A program made the translations under genes and the position numbers. Shown one piece after another: positions 30,326 through 37,900 of a stretch of 44,407 bases of DNA. The stretch lies in IMG/VR virus record IMGVR_UViG_3300010279_000003, positions 1 to 44,407 of that record; one strand, written 5' to 3'. Position 1 is the first letter of the stretch; every line of letters begins with the position of its first letter. The DNA is from a virus (lineage: Duplodnaviria; Heunggongvirae; Uroviricota; Caudoviricetes). The notes under the pieces are model-generated. The model saw nothing but the letters and a program-made list of their open reading frames with translations. It had not been told where the DNA came from and made no database searches.

Positions 30326-31492
30326 ATGGCTACAACTCCTTTTAAGGGCGCGAATACAGCGCAATTCTATGTGGCGGAAGTGACCCCGGGCGTAACCCCA
30401 GACAACCCTGTCTGGTCGCCGCTGCGCAATACGGGCGGTGTTCCTGCGGTAACCCGCGATGCGCTGACCTCCAACGAACTCGACGGCAGCCGAGAAACTA
30501 CATCCATCCGAACCGGCAACAAACAGGTTAGCGGGGAGTACGCCATCGAACTTAGCTCCCGTAGCCAGGATGATTTCCTCGCGGGTGCTATGACTTCTAC
30601 GTGGCAAGTTGGGGTAGAGATTACGGGTGCAGAAATTAAGGTCGCTCCAGCAGGTAAAACATTCACCCGCGCTGCTGGTAGCTTCATTACTGACGGTGTA
30701 GAAGTTGGCGACCTGATTGCGTTCACCGACTTAACCGGCGACAACGCAAAACCGTTTATCGTGACCGAGGTTTCTGCTCTTGTAGTTACGGGTTCTGGCA
30801 TTCAACACACGCTGACAGCAGAGACTGTAACCACCGACGCTAAAACTGGCGATAAACTGGAAACCGGTAACGCGTGTAAGACGTTCTCCATCCTGACATG
30901 GTTCAAAGGACAGTGCGGGAACCCTGACGCGTACATGTTAACCAAAGGCGTGGAAATCTCCGGTTTCACCATTGAACAGGCCGTAAACGCGATGGTGACA
31001 GGCAGCTTCCCGTTCATCGGCCTGAGTCAGGAGATTCTTTCCGGGCCGCCGGCAGGTTCCGACTTCTCTCAGGTCACATTCACTGACGAGCCGTTCTCAT
31101 CCGTAGATGTGTCTGTGTTCGACGGTTCTACGCCGTTGCGTTGCGATACTCTGACCATCACCAACGACAACGGTGCTTCCGCGCAGTTTGAACTTGGCAA
31201 CAGTAGCGTCGCGTTCGTGGAACGCGGCCGCGCAGCTAACACATTCTCCATCTCCGGCAAGCTGTACGACATGGCGATGATTCAGAAGTTTATCAACGAA
31301 CAGCAGGTAGAGATTAACTCTATTCTGGCGGGGGTAAACGGGGCTATGTCTTTCAGTTTGAAACGTGCCGAGTTGACCGCAGTTACGCCAGAGATTGGCG
31401 GGCCTGAGTCAATCACTCAGAGCATAGAAGGACAGTCCACAGGCAATCAATATCAATCTTCTATTGTAATACAGCGTATTAGCTACGCGTAA
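30326..31492 (+). CDS. Major tail protein
   Basis: 388 aa, Thr/Gly-rich, followed by terminator; assignment by position. Confidence 0.6.
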   Translation: MATTPFKGANTAQFYVAEVTPGVTPDNPVWSPLRNTGGVPAVTRDALTSNELDGSRETTSIRTGNKQVSGEYAIELSSRSQDDFLAGAMTSTWQVGVEITGAEIKVAPAGKTFTRAAGSFITDGVEVGDLIAFTDLTGDNAKPFIVTEVSALVVTGSGIQHTLTAETVTTDAKTGDKLETGNACKTFSILTWFKGQCGNPDAYMLTKGVEISGFTIEQAVNAMVTGSFPFIGLSQEILSGPPAGSDFSQVTFTDEPFSSVDVSVFDGSTPLRCDTLTITNDNGASAQFELGNSSVAFVERGRAANTFSISGKLYDMAMIQKFINEQQVEINSILAGVNGAMSFSLKRAELTAVTPEIGGPESITQSIEGQSTGNQYQSSIVIQRISYA

Positions 31493-31582: not shown

Positions 31583-32014
31583 CTAGTAGCGTTTTAAAGC
31601 ATCCGATGTGTGTGTTTTTACGTTATTGTTGAATATCTGTGCATACCACAACCTTTCTTTCGCGTTCCAGTAAACCCCGGTTACTCCTGATTTATTATTA
31701 CGCTGTTTTGACATATTTTTATGATTTTCCGCATTGGACTTTTTAGCTAAGTTAAGCGGTCTATTGTTTATTCGGTTATGGTCTAGATGGTCTATTTGAT
31801 CTGACGAGGTTAGCTTATCGTTAGGATTATTTAAGTCCCAAGCTATACGGTGCGCCGCGTGCCATTTACCCCTGAAAAATATCCTTCTATACCCGTCTCG
31901 CTGTACAGTACCTGCCTCCTCTCCAGCCTTAGCCCTCCCAGACCGTGTTACTCTGTTAAATATCCTTCCTGAAATTAAGTCGTATATGAAAAATTCATTC
32001 CAGTCCATAATCAT
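31583..32014 (-). CDS. HNH homing endonuclease with AP2 domain
   Basis: SDQIDHLDHNRINNRPLNL (HNH_3-like) and GVTGVYWNAKERLWYAQI (AP2-like). Confidence 0.75.
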   Translation of the reverse strand: MIMDWNEFFIYDLISGRIFNRVTRSGRAKAGEEAGTVQRDGYRRIFFRGKWHAAHRIAWDLNNPNDKLTSSDQIDHLDHNRINNRPLNLAKKSNAENHKNMSKQRNNKSGVTGVYWNAKERLWYAQIFNNNVKTHTSDALKRY

Positions 32015-32027
32015 CTCCTGTTGCGAT

Positions 32028-32055
32028 AAGGCCCCTTTCGGGGCCTTTTTCTTTA
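32028..32055 (+). terminator. Hairpin with T-tail in plus orientation, inside the minus-strand accessory operon
   Basis: Stem AAGGCCCC/GGGGCCTT, loop TTTC, then TTTCTTT. Confidence 0.45.
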
Positions 32056-32283
32056 CTCATCAATATTATCCCTGTACTCCCGTAACTTCTCCAGACTTTC
32101 AATTGCTTCTGCTAAGTCGGTTCCGGTGTCCTTGTGTCCGCGAAGGCCCATACACAACAGCTTCTTCAATGCGTGCTGTAGCGCCGGGTCCCGGATATCG
32201 AAGGCGCGGAGCACATCATAAACATCTACTGTCATAGTGCTGCCGTGGGTATTTGTCATTGTGCGGTTGTATTTATTTGTCAC
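32053..32283 (-). CDS. Hypothetical protein
   Basis: 76-aa ORF in operon. Confidence 0.5.
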   Translation of the reverse strand: MTNKYNRTMTNTHGSTMTVDVYDVLRAFDIRDPALQHALKKLLCMGLRGHKDTGTDLAEAIESLEKLREYRDNIDE

Positions 32284-32473
32284 TGTTAACTCTCTTAAAT
32301 CGGGCTATGCCTGACTCGTTAATGCTGCCTATTTCAAAGAAGCTGCGATATTTAGGCGAATACATTCTTACGTCGCCGTTCTCTAGGGTGACCCCTTCAT
32401 ATACCGCACCTACTTCGAATCCATTTTTCTCCGCGTACGGACTCACATCGGTGCATTCATACATATCTTTCAT
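32273..32473 (-). CDS. Hypothetical protein
   Basis: 66-aa ORF in operon. Confidence 0.5.
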   Translation of the reverse strand: MKDMYECTDVSPYAEKNGFEVGAVYEGVTLENGDVRMYSPKYRSFFEIGSINESGIARFKRVNSDK

Positions 32474-33600
32474 CCCAGCATCTCCGGTGAAATAGTTAAA
32501 CGTGCGACCTCGCCATATTCGGCGCTATAAGTAATTACGTTTGCACTACGGCCCGACATCCATCCGCCGCGGGAGGCGTAGGCGTCTTTGGCCGCTAAGG
32601 TGCGGTGTTGCTCAACAATCATGTTACGGCTTTCTACAATCTTCTGGTGGTGCAGGTGGCCTACGTGGGCGTAGCTGTAAACACTCTCACCGAACGCTTT
32701 GCGGAACTTGGCAATCATAACCGGTTCAATAGCGTCGAATCGTGCTTTATGCCCGTGATGGAAGAACAGCGTAGTTTTGCCGTGTTGCACCATCTTGTAA
32801 ACATCCGGCGACGTATCGACAATCACTCGGCTGTCGTTTGAGTATAAAACCGTGAACATTTCGGCAAGCCATACGGAGCCGACAGGGTCGTGATTTCCTT
32901 GCACGATAAGCAAGCGAACATTTTTGTGCTTAACCAGCGCCATATCAACGACACGGCGTACCATACGAATCATGTAGCGTACAAGTTTCTGATAGCGGGT
33001 GTCCGCATCAAGAACATGGCGCGACTCTGGCGTAACGGCATCCAGGCTATCGAAGTGCGCGAAGTCTCCTAGCAGATTAATAACACCCGTTCCTGCGTCA
33101 GGCGCTTTCTGGAATGCTGCATCGAACCATCGAGAGAACAGGTCTTCCGCGATTTTCATATCCCAGTCGTCGCCGCTCTCGTCCGCCCATGCCAGCATAC
33201 CGAGATGAAAATCAGATACCGTGTAAAGATTGAGTAGCTTGTCGTCACGTTTGGCGCGTGCCACTTTAACAGGCGCAACGGGGGTAATCTCTGACTTCAT
33301 GCCTTCGATTACGGCCTTCATTAACTCGACCTGACGTTCTGCGTCAGTGTCGGTCTTAACCCATTGCAGTTTAGTGTTGCCGAACTCGTCCACCAGAGAC
33401 GACGTACCTTTAATCTTGTAGCCGTCAGGCACAAGGTGACTAACGTCGCGACCGTGGCCTACACCTTTCTTAGCCAGCTTCGCTTTACGGATACGGATAA
33501 CGCGGTCTGAGATTCCGTACTTACGTGCGATATCAATAATTTTTGTTCCGGCGTTCAATTCTTCCCGTAACTGTTCGTCGGTTATTTTCTTATGAGCCAT
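32470..33600 (-). CDS. HTH-domain protein fused to a calcineurin-like metallophosphoesterase (SbcD/Mre11-like motifs)
   Basis: N-terminal HTH (IIDIARKYGISDRVIRIRKAK); MPP motifs SDFHLG, GDFAHFD, GNHD, GHLHH. Confidence 0.7.
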   Translation of the reverse strand: MAHKKITDEQLREELNAGTKIIDIARKYGISDRVIRIRKAKLAKKGVGHGRDVSHLVPDGYKIKGTSSLVDEFGNTKLQWVKTDTDAERQVELMKAVIEGMKSEITPVAPVKVARAKRDDKLLNLYTVSDFHLGMLAWADESGDDWDMKIAEDLFSRWFDAAFQKAPDAGTGVINLLGDFAHFDSLDAVTPESRHVLDADTRYQKLVRYMIRMVRRVVDMALVKHKNVRLLIVQGNHDPVGSVWLAEMFTVLYSNDSRVIVDTSPDVYKMVQHGKTTLFFHHGHKARFDAIEPVMIAKFRKAFGESVYSYAHVGHLHHQKIVESRNMIVEQHRTLAAKDAYASRGGWMSGRSANVITYSAEYGEVARLTISPEMLG

Positions 33601-33639
33601 GCTTTACTTCCTCGTGTTTAGGATTTGTCCTATACTAGC

Positions 33640-33831
33640 TCACTTCTCTTTGACATTCGAGTTGCACGCCCAGATTAAAATAAATACCCACGGCAGCAGA
33701 ACCCAACCGAGAAACAGATTAGCCATGAATATCGCTAATTTAGCTTTATGGTTGCGCATATGCGCCACGAGAAATGGGATAAAATAAACTAAAACGATAA
33801 TGATTAAGAAGAACATAGTAATACCTGTCAT
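33640..33831 (-). CDS. Small membrane protein resembling the superinfection-immunity (Imm) family
   Basis: AIFMANLFLGW...W...LIWA pattern; family recalled from memory. Confidence 0.55.
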   Translation of the reverse strand: MTGITMFFLIIIVLVYFIPFLVAHMRNHKAKLAIFMANLFLGWVLLPWVFILIWACNSNVKEK

Positions 33832-33872: not shown

Positions 33873-33901
33873 ATAGTATCCTATTATGTTGGGGTGTGCA
33901 A
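33873..33901 (-). promoter_or_regulatory. Sigma70-like promoter, class B (TTGCAC-N17-TACTAT) driving the accessory operon
   Basis: Read on minus strand; spacer ACCCCAACATAATAGGA. Confidence 0.6.
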
Positions 33902-33968
33902 GTAATGTGTTAGAATTATTTTGCGCCTAGTGTCGCACACGAAAAGCGGGTGGTTCCCGTCTGGCGCA

Positions 33969-34001
33969 TTAACCTTAACCTTAACCAGTAACCTCTTAAC
34001 C
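33969..34001. repeat. Tandem TTAACC hexamers (three contiguous plus a fourth copy)
   Basis: TTAACCTTAACCTTAACCAGTAACCTCTTAACC read directly. Confidence 0.7.
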
Positions 34002-34014
34002 AAAGGATTAAAGA

Positions 34015-34431
34015 ATGAAACTTTCTGATTTTTATTACGAAGCTGAGGCAGAAAAAGGCGCCCGTATGCCAATACCACTGAAAGACGGCACCGATTCAGG
34101 GGAGTGGCTGAACGTTGTTTCACCGGAGGCAGACGTTGCCGTTAAAGCTATGAGGGCGTTTACACTTGCGTACCGCGCGGCATTAGGTAAATTGAAACCG
34201 CTTCGTGATAAATGCGAGGAACTGAAAGATTTCTCGGAATACAATATTAAGATGGAAGACGCCGCGACGGACCTTAACCGCCAGTTAGCACTTGAACTGG
34301 TTAACGGTTGGAGTCTCGACGATGAATTTAATAAAGAGAACCTGAACACTCTTTTCTCACAATATAAACGCCTCGCTGAACACGTTGTTGTTTTCCACAA
34401 CGAACAGCTTCACCAATTGCAGGAAAAGTAG
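34015..34431 (+). CDS. Tail assembly chaperone (G-like)
   Basis: 138 aa directly upstream of tape measure gene. Confidence 0.55.
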   Translation: MKLSDFYYEAEAEKGARMPIPLKDGTDSGEWLNVVSPEADVAVKAMRAFTLAYRAALGKLKPLRDKCEELKDFSEYNIKMEDAATDLNRQLALELVNGWSLDDEFNKENLNTLFSQYKRLAEHVVVFHNEQLHQLQEK

Positions 34432-34436
34432 ACGCG

Positions 34437-34796
34437 TTGCTCCAGTTTGCCCGTTGGAACTTCATAACCCGCCACAAACGGCGGGAGTTTGACAGCATTG
34501 CCGACGGACATAAAGCCGCGCTAATTGCTATGGGGGTTATGCAAGACGCGCCGGAAGCAACGCAGGATACCGGGCCAGAATGCCCCCCTGAGCTATTAAC
34601 CACCTTCGAGAAGTACCGGGAAATCAAATTTACCCGCCGAGTGGATGACGACGGCATCAAGATGTACCCGCGCGAACAGTTAAGATGGTCGGATTTAGTG
34701 GCATACAGCACCGTTTCGGGCCAGAATATAGACATGTTTGAATCTGACATCATCATGAGCTTAGACGCTATTTTCGAGGGCAGAAACGATGGCTGA
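34437..34796 (+). CDS. Second tail assembly chaperone ORF (T-like), in the -1 frame relative to the G-like ORF
   Basis: Frame is open from 34380, overlapping the end of the G-like ORF; may be expressed as a frameshift fusion. Confidence 0.45.
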   Translation: MLQFARWNFITRHKRREFDSIADGHKAALIAMGVMQDAPEATQDTGPECPPELLTTFEKYREIKFTRRVDDDGIKMYPREQLRWSDLVAYSTVSGQNIDMFESDIIMSLDAIFEGRNDG

Positions 34797-37128
34797 TGTA
34801 GCTAGTTTAGTTGTAAAAGTATCAGAGCAAGGCGCGAAAGCTACCTCAGACCGTCTTGATAACCTTTCCAAGTCCGCAAAGGTAGCCGGGGCCGCGGTAG
34901 CGGGCCTCGCTTCCATCGTCGCTGCTACCGCGTACAAGGCCGCACAGGAACTGGTAGACTCCCAACGGCAACTGGATAAGATGTCCGCCAGCCTGAAAAC
35001 ACTAACCGGAAGCACGCAGGGGGCAAGACAGGCATTAAGCATCCTGCAAGACTTCGCGCGCGACACTCCGTATGGTCTTGAACAGGCAGTAGAGGGATTC
35101 CGTAAACTTGTGGCGCTTGGTCTTACACCATCAGAAGAAGCGTTGCGCTCCTATGGCAACACTGCCGCTGCTATGGGTAAAGACCTAAATCAGATGATTG
35201 AGGCCGTTGCGGACGCCAGTACGTTTGAATTTGAGCGCCTTAAAGAATTCGGCATCAAGGCTAAGCAGAACAAAGACGATGTTGAATTTACATTCCAGGG
35301 CACTACTACGGTGGTTAAGAAGAGCGCTGCCGATATCGAGCAATACCTGCTCAACATTGGTAACGTAAACTTCGCTGGGGCTATGGCGGACCAGGCTGAC
35401 ACACTTAACGGGGCCATAGCCAGTGCCAGCGACTCATGGTCGCAGTTAAAAATGACACTGGCTACCAGTCTTGATGTTGGTGCGCTCGCCGAACCTATCC
35501 GATACATCGATGATTTAATCCAGGAACTTAACGCACAGGTTGCATCCGGTGAACTTGCCGCAGAGATGCGTATGTGGGGTGACATCGCGTCGGAAGTAGG
35601 AAGCGCGATAGAGATGTCGTTCGACGCGGCATTTGGTTTTGTAGGTGACGCGATAAATGGACTGAATGAACTTTGGGATTTTAGCAGTAAAAGTATCACC
35701 GACAGCGGCGAACAAACGGCGACAACCATCGCGGAATCAGCAGCCGATGCGCTCGATTTCATCGCGGAAGAATTTACCGCGATGGAGCGCTTCTTTGAAG
35801 ATATGGTTAAAGGGGCGCAGGACGCTGGCCGGTTGGTGAAAGCAGCCTTCACACCAGGGGAATCTGTAGACGTAGCAAAAAACATTAACTTCCAGCTAGG
35901 GATGGCACTGGATACTCAGCGCGATGTTGCGGACCTGACCCGTAAAAGTTTCCGCGAACAGGTGGAGGCTCAGCAAAATATCGTCGCGCTTAAACGCGCG
36001 GCATATGACATCGACAAAGAAGCCGCTAAGGAAGAAGGGCTTAGTAAATTTAAGGTAACTGGTACTGGTGTCGGGTCCGAAGATGATAATGCTGGTGCAA
36101 AAGCCGCCAAGAAAGCTGCGGACGCGTTCGAGCGCCAGAAGAAAGCCGCGGAGGATTTCTACTACCAGTCGATTCATCTCAATGACGACGTATTCCAGAA
36201 AATAGAAGCTAATCAGGAGCAACAGTTAACCAAGCTACAAGAGTTTTACGGCAACCAGCTTCTTAGCGACCAGCAATACGAGAACGCCAAAACTCAAATT
36301 ATGCTGGAGGCGGACACCGCACGTCAGGAAGAACTCGCCAAGCGGGAGAAAGAACGGCAGGAGAAGAACCAGAAAGGCGAGGACTTCATGGCTCAGATTA
36401 TGGGCCAGAATGCTGCCGAGCTTGAGCTTCTGGAGATTCAGGAACAACAAAAACTGGACGTTGCTGATAGATACCGTGAACAGAATCTGATTAACGAGGA
36501 GCAGTACCAGGCAGCGGTTAACGCGATAAACGACCAGTACGCATTGAAACGTGCCAACGCTACCGGTAACGCTTTTGGCATGATGGCGGACAACATTAAG
36601 TCATCGCTAGGCGAGGCGTCCTCCGCGTATAAAGCATTCGCTATCGCTCAGGCCACAATAGCCACATACACATCCGCCATCGAGGCTTATAAATCTGCGT
36701 CCGCGATTCCTATTGTTGGTTGGGTGCTTGGTCCTGTGGCCGCGGCGGCAGCAGTAGCAGCAGGTCTGGCTAACATCGGCAAGATTCGTTCGGCCCGTGA
36801 ACAGGGAGGTCAGTTATCTGCGGGGCAGGCTTCCACCATCGCCGAACGCGGTAAACCAGAAGTTATCATGCCTGCTGGTGCATCGCGCGTACGAACTGCG
36901 CAGCAGATGAAAGAAATTATGGGGCAAAATGGGTCTTCTTCTGGCCCATCTAATGTTACCATTGTAAATAACACATCGAGTCAGATTGGCAACGTATCTA
37001 CCGAGCAGGATGACGAAGGCCGTTTGCGCATCATCATAGAAGAGCAGGTGGCTGCCTCTTTGCAGAACAGCAACAGTAAGATTAGCAAGGCCCGCAAGGC
37101 CACAAGAAACGCGCCTGGTTTCAAGTAA
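34789..37128 (+). CDS. Tail tape measure protein
   Basis: 779 aa, Ala/Gln/Glu-rich, hydrophobic segment near C-terminus, follows chaperone pair. Confidence 0.85.
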   Translation: MADVASLVVKVSEQGAKATSDRLDNLSKSAKVAGAAVAGLASIVAATAYKAAQELVDSQRQLDKMSASLKTLTGSTQGARQALSILQDFARDTPYGLEQAVEGFRKLVALGLTPSEEALRSYGNTAAAMGKDLNQMIEAVADASTFEFERLKEFGIKAKQNKDDVEFTFQGTTTVVKKSAADIEQYLLNIGNVNFAGAMADQADTLNGAIASASDSWSQLKMTLATSLDVGALAEPIRYIDDLIQELNAQVASGELAAEMRMWGDIASEVGSAIEMSFDAAFGFVGDAINGLNELWDFSSKSITDSGEQTATTIAESAADALDFIAEEFTAMERFFEDMVKGAQDAGRLVKAAFTPGESVDVAKNINFQLGMALDTQRDVADLTRKSFREQVEAQQNIVALKRAAYDIDKEAAKEEGLSKFKVTGTGVGSEDDNAGAKAAKKAADAFERQKKAAEDFYYQSIHLNDDVFQKIEANQEQQLTKLQEFYGNQLLSDQQYENAKTQIMLEADTARQEELAKREKERQEKNQKGEDFMAQIMGQNAAELELLEIQEQQKLDVADRYREQNLINEEQYQAAVNAINDQYALKRANATGNAFGMMADNIKSSLGEASSAYKAFAIAQATIATYTSAIEAYKSASAIPIVGWVLGPVAAAAAVAAGLANIGKIRSAREQGGQLSAGQASTIAERGKPEVIMPAGASRVRTAQQMKEIMGQNGSSSGPSNVTIVNNTSSQIGNVSTEQDDEGRLRIIIEEQVAASLQNSNSKISKARKATRNAPGFK

Positions 37129-37153: not shown

Positions 37154-37900
37154 TTACTCGCTGCGTACTTTTCCGTTACATAGCTCCGTGAACTCAGCTA
37201 TTATCTCGCTGTTGGCCACCATCCACTCACTGGCCCCATCAAAGTTGCTTAGCTCCGCCGATACGTGTGTGCGGTGAAAGTATCGCTCTAACATACGGCA
37301 ACGAGCACCATTAGCGTCTTGGTATACACTAAGCACATGGAACTCAAACGGAGTGGAGCGCTCCAGTTGAGCAAGTCGTTGTTTTAACTTGTTAGTAATA
37401 CCTATTTTAAGGTATTTACCACATGCAGAAAGAAGTCCGTAAATGTACCCTGGTTTGTTAGAGTCGTAGCCGTGTCTGGCGCACGACGGACAACCATGCC
37501 TGTGCACTAAAATATTATTAACCCCTGTAGCAAACACCCCGTGGTCATTACATGCGCGTATCGCTTTGGAGTTTTTGTTTAGGTACGCGCCGCCTTCAAA
37601 ACCCACGAACGTATATCGAACATCCGCGGATTTTATTTGCTCAATAACGGCATCTGTATTCTTGCGGTAGGCAGCCGCCGCGGCTTCTCGACTGCATTTC
37701 ATACACCCGTGTCCTCCAGAGATGCTACGGGCTATAGCTGAAAATTCACCGTGGGACGGGCAAATAAGTCTAATCTTGCTAGTCGAGTCAATGTACTCAC
37801 TACCGTCATAACTTGCGGATATTGTGTACTTCCCGCCGTGTTTCTTTAAATCTAACTCGACCATTTTCTTCCGTTCTTCCCAACCAATTTTAACGCTCAT
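37154..37900 (-). CDS. GIY-YIG-related (T5orf172-like) endonuclease-like protein with Cys/His zinc-binding motifs
   Basis: PGYIYGLL...YLKIGIT motif; repeated CPSHGEF and GCPSCARHG motifs. Confidence 0.55.
   Translation of the reverse strand: MSVKIGWEERKKMVELDLKKHGGKYTISASYDGSEYIDSTSKIRLICPSHGEFSAIARSISGGHGCMKCSREAAAAAYRKNTDAVIEQIKSADVRYTFVGFEGGAYLNKNSKAIRACNDHGVFATGVNNILVHRHGCPSCARHGYDSNKPGYIYGLLSACGKYLKIGITNKLKQRLAQLERSTPFEFHVLSVYQDANGARCRMLERYFHRTHVSAELSNFDGASEWMVANSEIIAEFTELCNGKVRSE

Follow-up and report, generated by a model that had tools for sequence, protein, structure and literature searches.

Comparative evidence for a probable -1 frameshift at an A_AAG site adjoining the stop codon in the tail assembly chaperone genes of a Kagunavirus and its relatives

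The IMG/VR virus record IMGVR_UViG_3300010279_000003 (Caudoviricetes), 44,407 nucleotides (nt) long and taken here in full as the window, is a Kagunavirus genome that carries two overlapping open reading frames (ORFs) for tail assembly chaperones, here called G and T. Comparison of the junction between these frames among relatives points to a -1 frameshift in the last codons of G, at the sequence G_GAA_AAG, as the way in which T is joined to G. The proposed site directly adjoins the G stop codon and is followed, 5 nt downstream, by one arm of a long-range RNA helix whose other arm lies well inside T. That a -1 shift at 34422-34428 yields a G-T fusion protein is regarded as likely, slippage itself being read from the pattern of conservation. 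The features of the junction are as follows.

34015 to 34431, plus strand: G-like tail assembly chaperone ORF, 138 amino acids, 15.9 kDa (PF08748 Phage_TAC_4; phrog_15027 positions 1-138)
34380 to 34431, plus strand: overlap in which the -1 (T) frame is open, 52 nt, from the stop positions in each frame
34422 to 34428, plus strand: proposed -1 shift site G_GAA_AAG, with its core tetramer A_AAG at 34425-34428, from comparative conservation
34428 to 34796, plus strand: T-frame part of the predicted fusion, 122 codons, from GTA (Val) at 34428-34430 to TGA at 34794-34796 (PF23812)
34429 to 34431, plus strand: G stop codon UAG, adjoining the shift site (UAG in 13, UAA in 5 and UGA in 0 of the 18 sequence clusters described below)

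Codons of G begin at positions equal to 1 modulo 3 and end at the TAG at 34429-34431. T lies in the frame equal to 0 modulo 3, shifted by -1 with respect to G; on the upstream side this frame is last closed by the TGA at 34377-34379, and it stays open from 34380 to the TGA at 34794-34796. The initial annotation of this region had described a second chaperone frame open from 34380, in the -1 frame and overlapping the last ~50 nt of G without a canonical X XXY YYZ site, and had named AGGAAAAG near the stop as the only candidate. The description stands, with an overlap of 52 nt and no X_XXY_YYZ heptamer anywhere within 34380-34431 when scanned in the G register. The same register holds two Z_ZZN tetramers, A_AAG at 34425-34428, inside AGGAAAAG (34421-34428), and U_UUC at 34392-34395 (in GTT_TTC), the second of which was absent from that earlier account. 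Read-through of the UAG would append just 11 zero-frame residues. A second ORF overlapping the end of G in the -1 frame is present in all 62 distinct relatives, the -1 frame opening anywhere from 12 to 204 nt upstream of the G stop.

The comparative data set was assembled from two scans of IMG/VR, one with the G protein and one with an alignment of T proteins, together with GenBank records, and comprises about 100 loci. Grouping the 62 distinct G-T junctions that they yield gives 18 clusters at a threshold of 80% protein identity and 8 at one of 60%; within the set, identity of T to that of the window goes down to 37%.

Throughout this range the junction is built in one way. At every locus G ends in NNA_AAG_TAR, with T starting exactly there in the -1 frame; one clade reads A_AAA_AAA_TAR. 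The penultimate codon of G has A as its third base in all 18 clusters, while the residue that it encodes is variable (Glu in nine, Ala in six, and Ser, Val and Lys in one each); these amino-acid replacements are independent events, each retaining the A. Against a background of 20% A at third positions, the product of the probabilities of a third-base A given each amino acid is 10^-8.0, a figure computed, like the other codon and third-base probabilities given here, without allowing for shared ancestry. The last codon of G, a lysine, is AAG in 17 of the 18 clusters, and elsewhere in these genes AAA and AAG are used in the proportion 167:168 (AAG 168/335, 50%). To judge from these alignments, the junction is conserved at the nucleotide level and not at the protein level.

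Conservation extends one base upstream. The base before a penultimate GAA is G in 48 of 48 distinct sequences, an event of probability 10^-2.3 given the amino acids, and the site of the window is therefore best written G_GAA_AAG. Canonical heptamers are found at the very same position in some relatives: G_GGA_AAG in one sequence (L086) that differs by one base from its sister sequences, A_AAA_AAA in L091-95, and A_AAA_AAC followed by TGA in the distant L030. The candidate put forward initially is thereby strengthened, since its core A_AAG is either kept or replaced by a canonical heptamer in 18 of 18 clusters. Several lineages leave the -1 frame just 12-16 nt of open sequence ahead of the G stop, so that the shift has to fall within the final 4-5 codons of G. 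The stop adjoins the shift codon in 62 of 62 distinct junctions, relatives with canonical heptamers included.

An upstream stimulator of the Shine-Dalgarno type was looked for as well. No Shine-Dalgarno-like sequence is present 6-17 nt upstream of the site in the window. AGGA at 34421-34424 was considered and rejected as such a stimulator: it directly abuts the site, and it is missing in relatives with GCA, UCA or GUA as penultimate codon.

In T codons 1-33 the amino acids are under purifying selection and synonymous change is free. Across the 18 clusters W9 is nearly invariant and D21 and S22 are conserved, with F20 written as TTT in nine and TTC in nine, H27 as CAT in 12 and CAC in six, I23 with three codons and L31 with five. 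Most database records begin a separate T coding sequence (CDS) within this segment, at the following codon.

34437 to 34439, plus strand: TTG, start of the separate T CDS in most database records, inside the 5' helix arm

The 17 remaining clusters have CTG in place of this TTG, so that only the window's own cluster has a start codon at the junction; the first family-wide start codon is an ATG at T codon 34 (17 of 18 clusters). A segment of 33 codons that is conserved as protein yet lacks a conserved start codon is expected to be translated and to be entered only from the G frame. On this codon evidence a -1 shift within the final codons of G would be the sole way into T. The same two properties, conservation as protein from the first codon past the site and the lack of a conserved start codon, bear out the earlier suggestion that the overlap is of the kind used for G/GT-style -1 frameshifting.

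The two T codons after the stop are nearly frozen at their synonymous sites, Ala being GCG in 17 of 18 clusters and Leu being CTG in 17 and TTG in one, whereas other conserved Ala and Leu columns use mixed codons in the same 18 clusters. Two initial tests for structure had been blank: in 18 representatives the first 60 nt past the site, folded locally, had a mean z of -0.02, and RNAalifold returned 0 pairs from an alignment reaching only to about +112 nt. Both were blank because the partner lies farther downstream. It was the frozen synonymous sites of GCG CUG that led to a search for a complementary downstream segment, and such a segment is present in all 62 sequences. In the window the two arms are:

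34434 to 34443, plus strand: 5' arm, core GCGUUGC at 34434-34440 with a window-specific extension to 34443, starting 5 nt after AAG
34553 to 34563, plus strand: 3' arm, core GCAACGC at 34557-34563, with extension A34556 and G34553-G34554 and with A34555 bulged, from pairing and conservation

The pairs formed are G34434-C34440 with G34557-C34563, then U34441-A34556, C34442-G34554 and C34443-G34553. While the 5' arm is kept at 5-6 nt from the shift site in all clades, the position of the partner is clade-specific, and the relatives can be grouped accordingly. Clades with a T of 122 codons, the window included, have the partner at about +126 nt. Clades with a T of 121 codons have it at about +200 nt. 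The A_AAA_AAA clade has it, tentatively, at about +71 nt. The sequence of the arms varies in step: GCGCUGUA pairs with UACAGCGC in most sequences, Kagunaviruses having GCGUUGC/GCAACGC and Jerseyviruses GCGUUGU/ACAACGC, and in the A_AAA_AAA clade (L091-93) GCCCUGCU pairs with AGCAGGGC at about +71 nt. Folding of the whole T region prefers a partner other than AGCAGGGC in L091-93.

The helix was recovered de novo by RNAalifold in two groups of sequences, group A (alignment A3, 15 sequences, helix columns 19-25/142-148 and 27-28/139-140) and group B (alignment A4, 18 sequences, helix columns 19-29/212-222, 11 base pairs). Standard pairs fill 94.1% of the cells in A and 97.5% in B, and when the 3' partner is slid by 1-3 columns these values fall to 18-48% and 11-52%. 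Covariation scores are 0.337 in A and 0.163 in B against shuffled means of 0.182 and 0.092, neither being reached in any of 500 shuffles. In group A the covarying pairs are 22/145 (CG in eight, UA in seven) and 25/142 (UA in six, UG in six, CG in three); in group B the pair 27/214 (UA in eight, CG in four, UG in three, GC in one) joins a synonymous Tyr site to an Ile/Val codon. An exhaustive scan for stacked helices of 8 base pairs, covering 13,861 and 25,651 candidates, ranked this helix first in both alignments and as the only one above 0.9. With the whole T region (~365 nt) folded, the probability of pairing between arm and partner is at least 0.97 in 16 of 18 representatives. The 3' arm of group A forms an island of invariant bases (A3 columns 143, 144 and 146-148) within a variable protein linker. 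In the minimum free energy structure of the window the helix closes a three-way junction (-50.6 kcal/mol, z = -2.3), and barring the pairing of the arms costs 9 kcal/mol. A scan of 34300-34800 against Rfam gave only noise and no matching family.

One branch of the predicted three-way junction is a GC-rich hairpin within T, CCCGCC-ACAAAC-GGCGGG at 34468-34485. As a stimulator in its own right this hairpin was rejected, as it lies 40 nt from the site, is weakened in Jerseyviruses and is absent from other clades.

The start of a helix at the mRNA entrance of the ribosome is the classical geometry of a -1 stimulator. In the window the 5' arm would stand at the mRNA entrance of a ribosome that has GAA in its P site and AAG in its A site, the 3' arm about 120 nt downstream inside T, and the helix would close a structured domain of ~130 nt; the slip is probably stimulated in this way. 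That the helix acts as the frameshift stimulator is, on its position, the reading we lean towards, if with clearly less assurance than the shift itself. Elaborate or distal elements have precedents in bacterial systems, namely the three-way junction of IS911, the partners 44-104 nt off in elements of the IS3411 type, and T7 gene 10, where a frameshift effect comes from more than 200 nt away (PMC5009743).

The sequence of events proposed for the junction is as follows. Most ribosomes would terminate at the UAG at 34429-34431 and release the 138-residue G, and a minority would slip by -1 on G_GAA_AAG. The tRNA-Lys (anticodon mnm5s2UUU) would shift from AAG to AAA, and tRNA-Glu (UUC), judged by its anticodon and the codons concerned, could move from GAA to GGA by means of a central G.U pair; the variants with GCA, UCA or GUA would depend on slippage of tRNA-Lys alone. 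After the slip, GUA GAC GCG and the codons following would be read in the -1 frame to 34796. The predicted product is most likely a G-T fusion of 260 amino acids and 29.9 kDa with the junction ...LQEK/VDALLQFAR, and the Glu-C peptide across this predicted junction is KVDALLQFARWNFITRHKRRE. If lambda is a guide, binding of the tape measure protein would fall to the G part and binding of the tail tube protein to the T part.

The tetramer concerned is well suited to such a slip, A_AAG being the most shift-prone tetramer in E. coli (PMC4066793, PMC5009743). E. coli reads AAA and AAG with a single tRNA-Lys (mnm5s2UUU) that pairs better with AAA (PMC5009743), and it is this preference that makes A_AAG so shift-prone. 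No tRNA genes were found in the window. The abutting stop may have a role beyond ending G: unshifted ribosomes would end at the foot of the helix, T would stay largely free of ribosomes, and the long-range pairing could persist.

Several observations weigh against a stimulated -1 shift as the source of T. In the window's clade there is a TTG with AGGA 12 nt upstream, and some independent initiation of T may occur; two separate genes are given in most database records. The enclosed loop of 116-190 nt is unusual for a bacterial frameshift stimulator, and all that relatives share of the domain is its closing helix and some short internal pairs, few in number, the interior otherwise lacking conservation. 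The covariation rests on few evolutionary events in related sequences, and the shuffles ignore phylogeny. The argument from a single tRNA-Lys is established for E. coli-like hosts only and not for hosts of the distant IMG/VR relatives. In E. coli, Z_ZZN tetramers lacking a stimulator shift at 0.147% against a background of 0.112% (PMC4066793), which makes the proposal depend on the helix and its presumed stimulatory role. No proteomic or reporter study bearing on the fusion protein was found in the literature for Guernseyvirinae, the subfamily to which the window's relatives belong.

The low rate of bare tetramers can also be taken the other way: A_AAG with a strong pseudoknot reaches 5.6% (PMC4066793), and since unstimulated tetramers scarcely exceed background, a stimulator is to be expected here. 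The points concerning the start of T lead to the alternative that T is a separate protein of 119 amino acids and 13.8 kDa, made by initiation or re-initiation at TTG 34437 with AGGA 34421-34424 as its Shine-Dalgarno sequence and with no fusion needed. Exactly this CDS is annotated by gene callers and in most GenBank and RefSeq records, the annotators of the related phage Shashou labelled AGGA as a ribosome binding site, and a TTG 5 nt past the G stop has a geometry that fits translational coupling. The codon is, however, CTG in the 17 other clusters, and 33 protein-conserved residues precede the shared start at codon 34. AGGA is merely part of the Gln-Glu codons and is missing where the penultimate codon is GCA, TCA or GTA, its spacing of 12 nt from the TTG is long, TTG is a weak start codon, and the codon sits within the 5' arm of the conserved helix. 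Separate translation would moreover leave both the invariant A_AAG and the canonical heptamers at the same position in relatives unexplained. We hold it to be quite improbable. Less probable still, to the point of being barely credible, is a shift elsewhere, at U_UUC 34392-34395, or transcriptional slippage on the A run. Among tetramers in E. coli, U_UUC ranks second in its proneness to shift (PMC4066793), and in this phage it lies within the open part of the overlap. The motif is not conserved, though, and in 96%-identical Kagunaviruses and in the Golestan type a stop downstream of its position closes the -1 frame, which opens only 25-28 nt before the G stop. U_UUC was rejected as a conserved shift site on this ground, the -1-frame stop cutting the tetramer off from T in close relatives. 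Transcriptional slippage is associated with runs of 7-9 nt (PMC3711429), and was likewise rejected, as the A run is 4 nt in the window and 3 nt in relatives with GCA_AAG, too short for it.

Two further possibilities accept the shift, or at least its product, and differ in how it comes about. The helix could be real and yet serve otherwise, in protection of T from nucleases, in silencing internal starts, or in modulating termination or tape-measure translation, in which case frameshifting at G_GAA_AAG would be unstimulated and very low. Its long span is unlike that of classical compact stimulators, its interior lacks conservation, and the lambda G/GT shift is usually described as low-level at its heptamer with no elaborate stimulator mentioned (PMC5009743). 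Set against these points is the fixed place of the 5' arm, which every clade keeps 5-6 nt from the shift site even though the 3' partner has changed place (~+71, +126 and +200 nt), as expected if position relative to the shift site is what is selected; tetramer and hexamer sites in E. coli need a stimulator to beat background (PMC4066793), and the precedents of IS911, the IS3411 type and T7 gene 10 apply here too (PMC5009743). A helix without stimulating function is accordingly considered unlikely. Comparably unlikely in our estimation is a "shifty stop", by which AAG would be decoded, the ribosome would pause once UAG had entered the A site, the peptidyl-tRNA-Lys held in the P site would slip to AAA and Val-tRNA would read GUA, giving the same fusion; release-factor activity (release factor 1, RF1, for UAG) would then set the ratio of GT to G. 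This would account for the adjoining stop in all 62 distinct junctions and for the use of UAG or UAA but never UGA in the 18 clusters, with UAG in 13 of 18 against ~6 of 44 (~14%) of the window's long ORFs ending in TAG. The lambda G stop is 15 nt from the heptamer, so that abutment of the stop is not a general feature of G/GT, and stop-dependent stimulation of frameshifting is established, both from the "shifty stops" of Weiss et al. (1987) and from the case of pea enation mosaic virus (cited in PMC5009743). But a helix 5 nt past AAG fits a ribosome whose P and A sites hold GAA and AAG; once AAG had moved on to the P site, the ribosome would have opened three further base pairs. The G before GAA (48 of 48) hints at re-pairing of tRNA-Glu, which a model of slippage in the P site only does not need. 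Slow decoding in the A site has a greater effect on +1 than on -1 shifts (PMC5009743), and T has an acidic second residue (GAN codons), which confounds the preference for UAG. Classical slippage, the ribosome holding GAA in the P site and AAG in the A site, is favoured on two grounds, the place of the helix and the constancy of the G that precedes GAA; the classical and P-site routes give the same protein.

Among known systems the closest in function is the G/G-T pair of lambda (Levin et al. 1993; Xu et al. 2004, 2013, 2014; summarised in PMC5009743). As in the window, two overlapping ORFs immediately precede the tape measure gene in lambda and the second of them is read in the -1 frame, with a shift codon AAG read by tRNA-Lys and an 8-nt overlap of T stop and tape-measure start; an abundant short chaperone and a rare fusion are expected in both. 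Lambda differs in its canonical G_GGA_AAG, 15 nt before the G stop, where the window has G_GAA_AAG, one base different and adjoining the stop. Unlike lambda, the window has a conserved long-range helix after the site, chaperones of the Pfam families TAC_4 and TAC_18, and a minus-strand block of 2.5 kilobases (kb) between the tube gene and G. The chaperone pair is functionally of the lambda G/GT type, with a site other than a canonical heptamer.

The predicted site itself fits the NNA_AAG class accompanied by a downstream structure. In IS1222 and B. subtilis cdd (Licznar et al. 2003; Sharma et al. 2014), as here by proposal, a single tRNA-Lys slips on A_AAG after a codon that forms no canonical XXX triplet. 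The 5' codon in those two is CGA, whereas here it is GAA, GCA, UCA or GUA with the stop following immediately, and the gene here is one for phage structural assembly rather than for a transposase or a cellular enzyme. The cdd stimulator, as Mejlhede et al. reportedly described in 1999, is an upstream Shine-Dalgarno-like sequence. NNA_AAG sites are known to operate in IS1222 (G_CGA_AAG) and cdd (A_CGA_AAG), with an efficiency that depends on the 5' codon and on stimulators (PMC5009743, PMC4066793). The sites of E. coli dnaX, IS911 and the IS3 elements share with the window an A_AAG-type shift codon, a spacer of 5-7 nt and then an RNA structure, the IS911 stimulator being a three-way junction of the same shape as that predicted for the window. 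Those systems have full heptamers (A_AAA_AAG), compact local structures and often an upstream Shine-Dalgarno stimulator; here, in contrast, the closing helix spans 116-190 nt and the position of its 3' arm differs between clades.

Within the subfamily the junction has been treated in two ways. Salmonella phage Shelanagig (MK931446; Jerseyvirus, Guernseyvirinae) has the identical junction CAGGAAAAGTAGACGCGTTG, the same gene order and the same predicted fusion length. Its announcement states that the phage 'contains the slippery sequence needed' (PMC6763656), and its record holds a joined CDS, 'tail assembly chaperone frameshift product', a prediction made without site analysis. In the announcement of the Kagunavirus Shashou, from the same laboratory and with an identical junction, no canonical slippery sequence was reported and two separate genes were kept.

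The identity of the proteins is supported by several profile searches. G matches PF08748 Phage_TAC_4 (E = 2.5e-8, 34.6 bits, cut-off 21.1) and the -1 frame matches PF23812 Phage_TAC_18 (E = 6.8e-19, 68.2 bits, cut-off 27). The PHROG matches of the pair are phrog_15027 and phrog_313. PHROG 15027 ('tail assembly chaperone', 259 positions) aligns at positions 1-138 to G and at 135-259 to the -1 frame, with the junction ...QEK/V. Since it aligns to both, this profile is built of fused G-T proteins; fused proteins of this kind are already present in databases. Sequence searches of the PDB with G and with T gave nothing meaningful and NCBIfam gave no match, and the conceptual fusion returned just 5 weak partial matches and no named fusion from a collection of 5.8 billion proteins.

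The surrounding region, 33900-34900, is 99% identical to that of Escherichia phages vB_EcoS_XY1 and vB_VIPECOTH07 and 80-97% identical to that of hundreds of Kagunavirus and Jerseyvirus genomes (Guernseyvirinae). The closest relatives of the window are phages infecting E. coli. On either side of the chaperone pair lie the following tail genes.

30326 to 31492, plus strand: tail tube protein gene (PF18906 Phage_tube_2, E = 1.1e-36; phrog_290)
34789 to 37128, plus strand: tape measure protein gene, with an ATG overlapping the T stop (phrog_1538, E = 2e-198)

The tape measure protein scores 35.8 bits with PF20155 TMP_3, under the Pfam cut-off of 41 bits. The overlap of T stop and tape-measure start is ATGGCTGA (34789-34796, 8 nt) and is kept in relatives down to 43% identity; it hints at translational coupling for the few ribosomes that would translate T.

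Between the tube gene and G a minus-strand block, 31583-33831 (~2.5 kb), breaks the usual tube-chaperone order. The block comprises an HNH endonuclease at 31583-32014 (PF13392), two small ORFs, a metallophosphatase at 32470-33600, labelled in relatives as 'DNA repair exonuclease' or phosphatase, and a T4 Imm-like superinfection immunity protein at 33640-33831, all on the minus strand. A further minus-strand gene, at 37154-37900 between the tape measure gene and the next tail gene, carries T5orf172/MUG113 (GIY-YIG-like) and CapR-type zinc-finger domains, corresponds to phrog_681 'endonuclease' and resembles a homing-endonuclease insertion.

Two observations were made on records in the comparative set. 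A scan of GTDB (185,579 genomes) gave one match, L098, on a 13-kb scaffold of Taishania pollutisoli CZZ-1 (NZ_JACVEL010000023.1). This is a Jerseyvirus-type junction, identical to that of Salmonella phages, within a Flavobacteriales assembly, and is most likely assembly contamination rather than a prophage. In the Jerseyvirus-like L024 / L046 (IMGVR_UViG_638275545_000001) the G ORF is broken mid-way by an in-frame TGA, G reading ...GGAGTCTCGATGATGAG where other genomes read ...GGAGTCTCGACGATGAA, with a normal G-T junction. The break looks like an indel of 1 nt, either a sequencing error or a genuine mutation of G.

The frameshift as such is not new, since a prediction of the fusion exists in at least one GenBank record and in PHROG 15027. 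To our knowledge, an invariant A_AAG adjoining the stop across many diverged clades, its alternation with canonical heptamers at the same position, and a covarying long-range helix 5 nt downstream whose 3' partner has moved between clades have not been described before. NNA_AAG sites have rarely been documented, a 2016 review naming IS1222, cdd and drug-resistant herpesvirus mutants (PMC5009743), and the present junction would add a natural and widely conserved phage case. For annotation, the locus is entered as two separate chaperone genes or as a 'hypothetical protein' in hundreds of Kagunavirus and Jerseyvirus genomes, many of them from phages put forward for use in therapy or biocontrol, and the two announcements from one laboratory conflict on an identical junction. 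The comparison favours one rule for all, a join at ...AAG/GTA with a -1 slip. Frameshift stimulators in phage structural operons may be long-range helices, and the local folding windows of PRFect-type tools would miss such helices. The proposed frameshift cassette is ~170 nt long and lends itself to clear synonymous and compensatory mutations.

It is conceivable, if rather doubtful at present, that these elements form a family-wide modular cassette new for phage tail genes, consisting of NNA_AAG, the abutting stop and a helix whose 3' arm lies 70-200 nt inside T. Were it real, the stop would make unshifted ribosomes terminate at the foot of the structure, and since only frameshifted ribosomes would translate T, each shift would melt the stimulator for the ribosomes that follow. 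This would constitute a built-in negative feedback keeping GT:G low and constant, and possibly sensitive to RF1, and the relocation of the 3' arm between clades would represent the evolution of a stimulator by partner switching.

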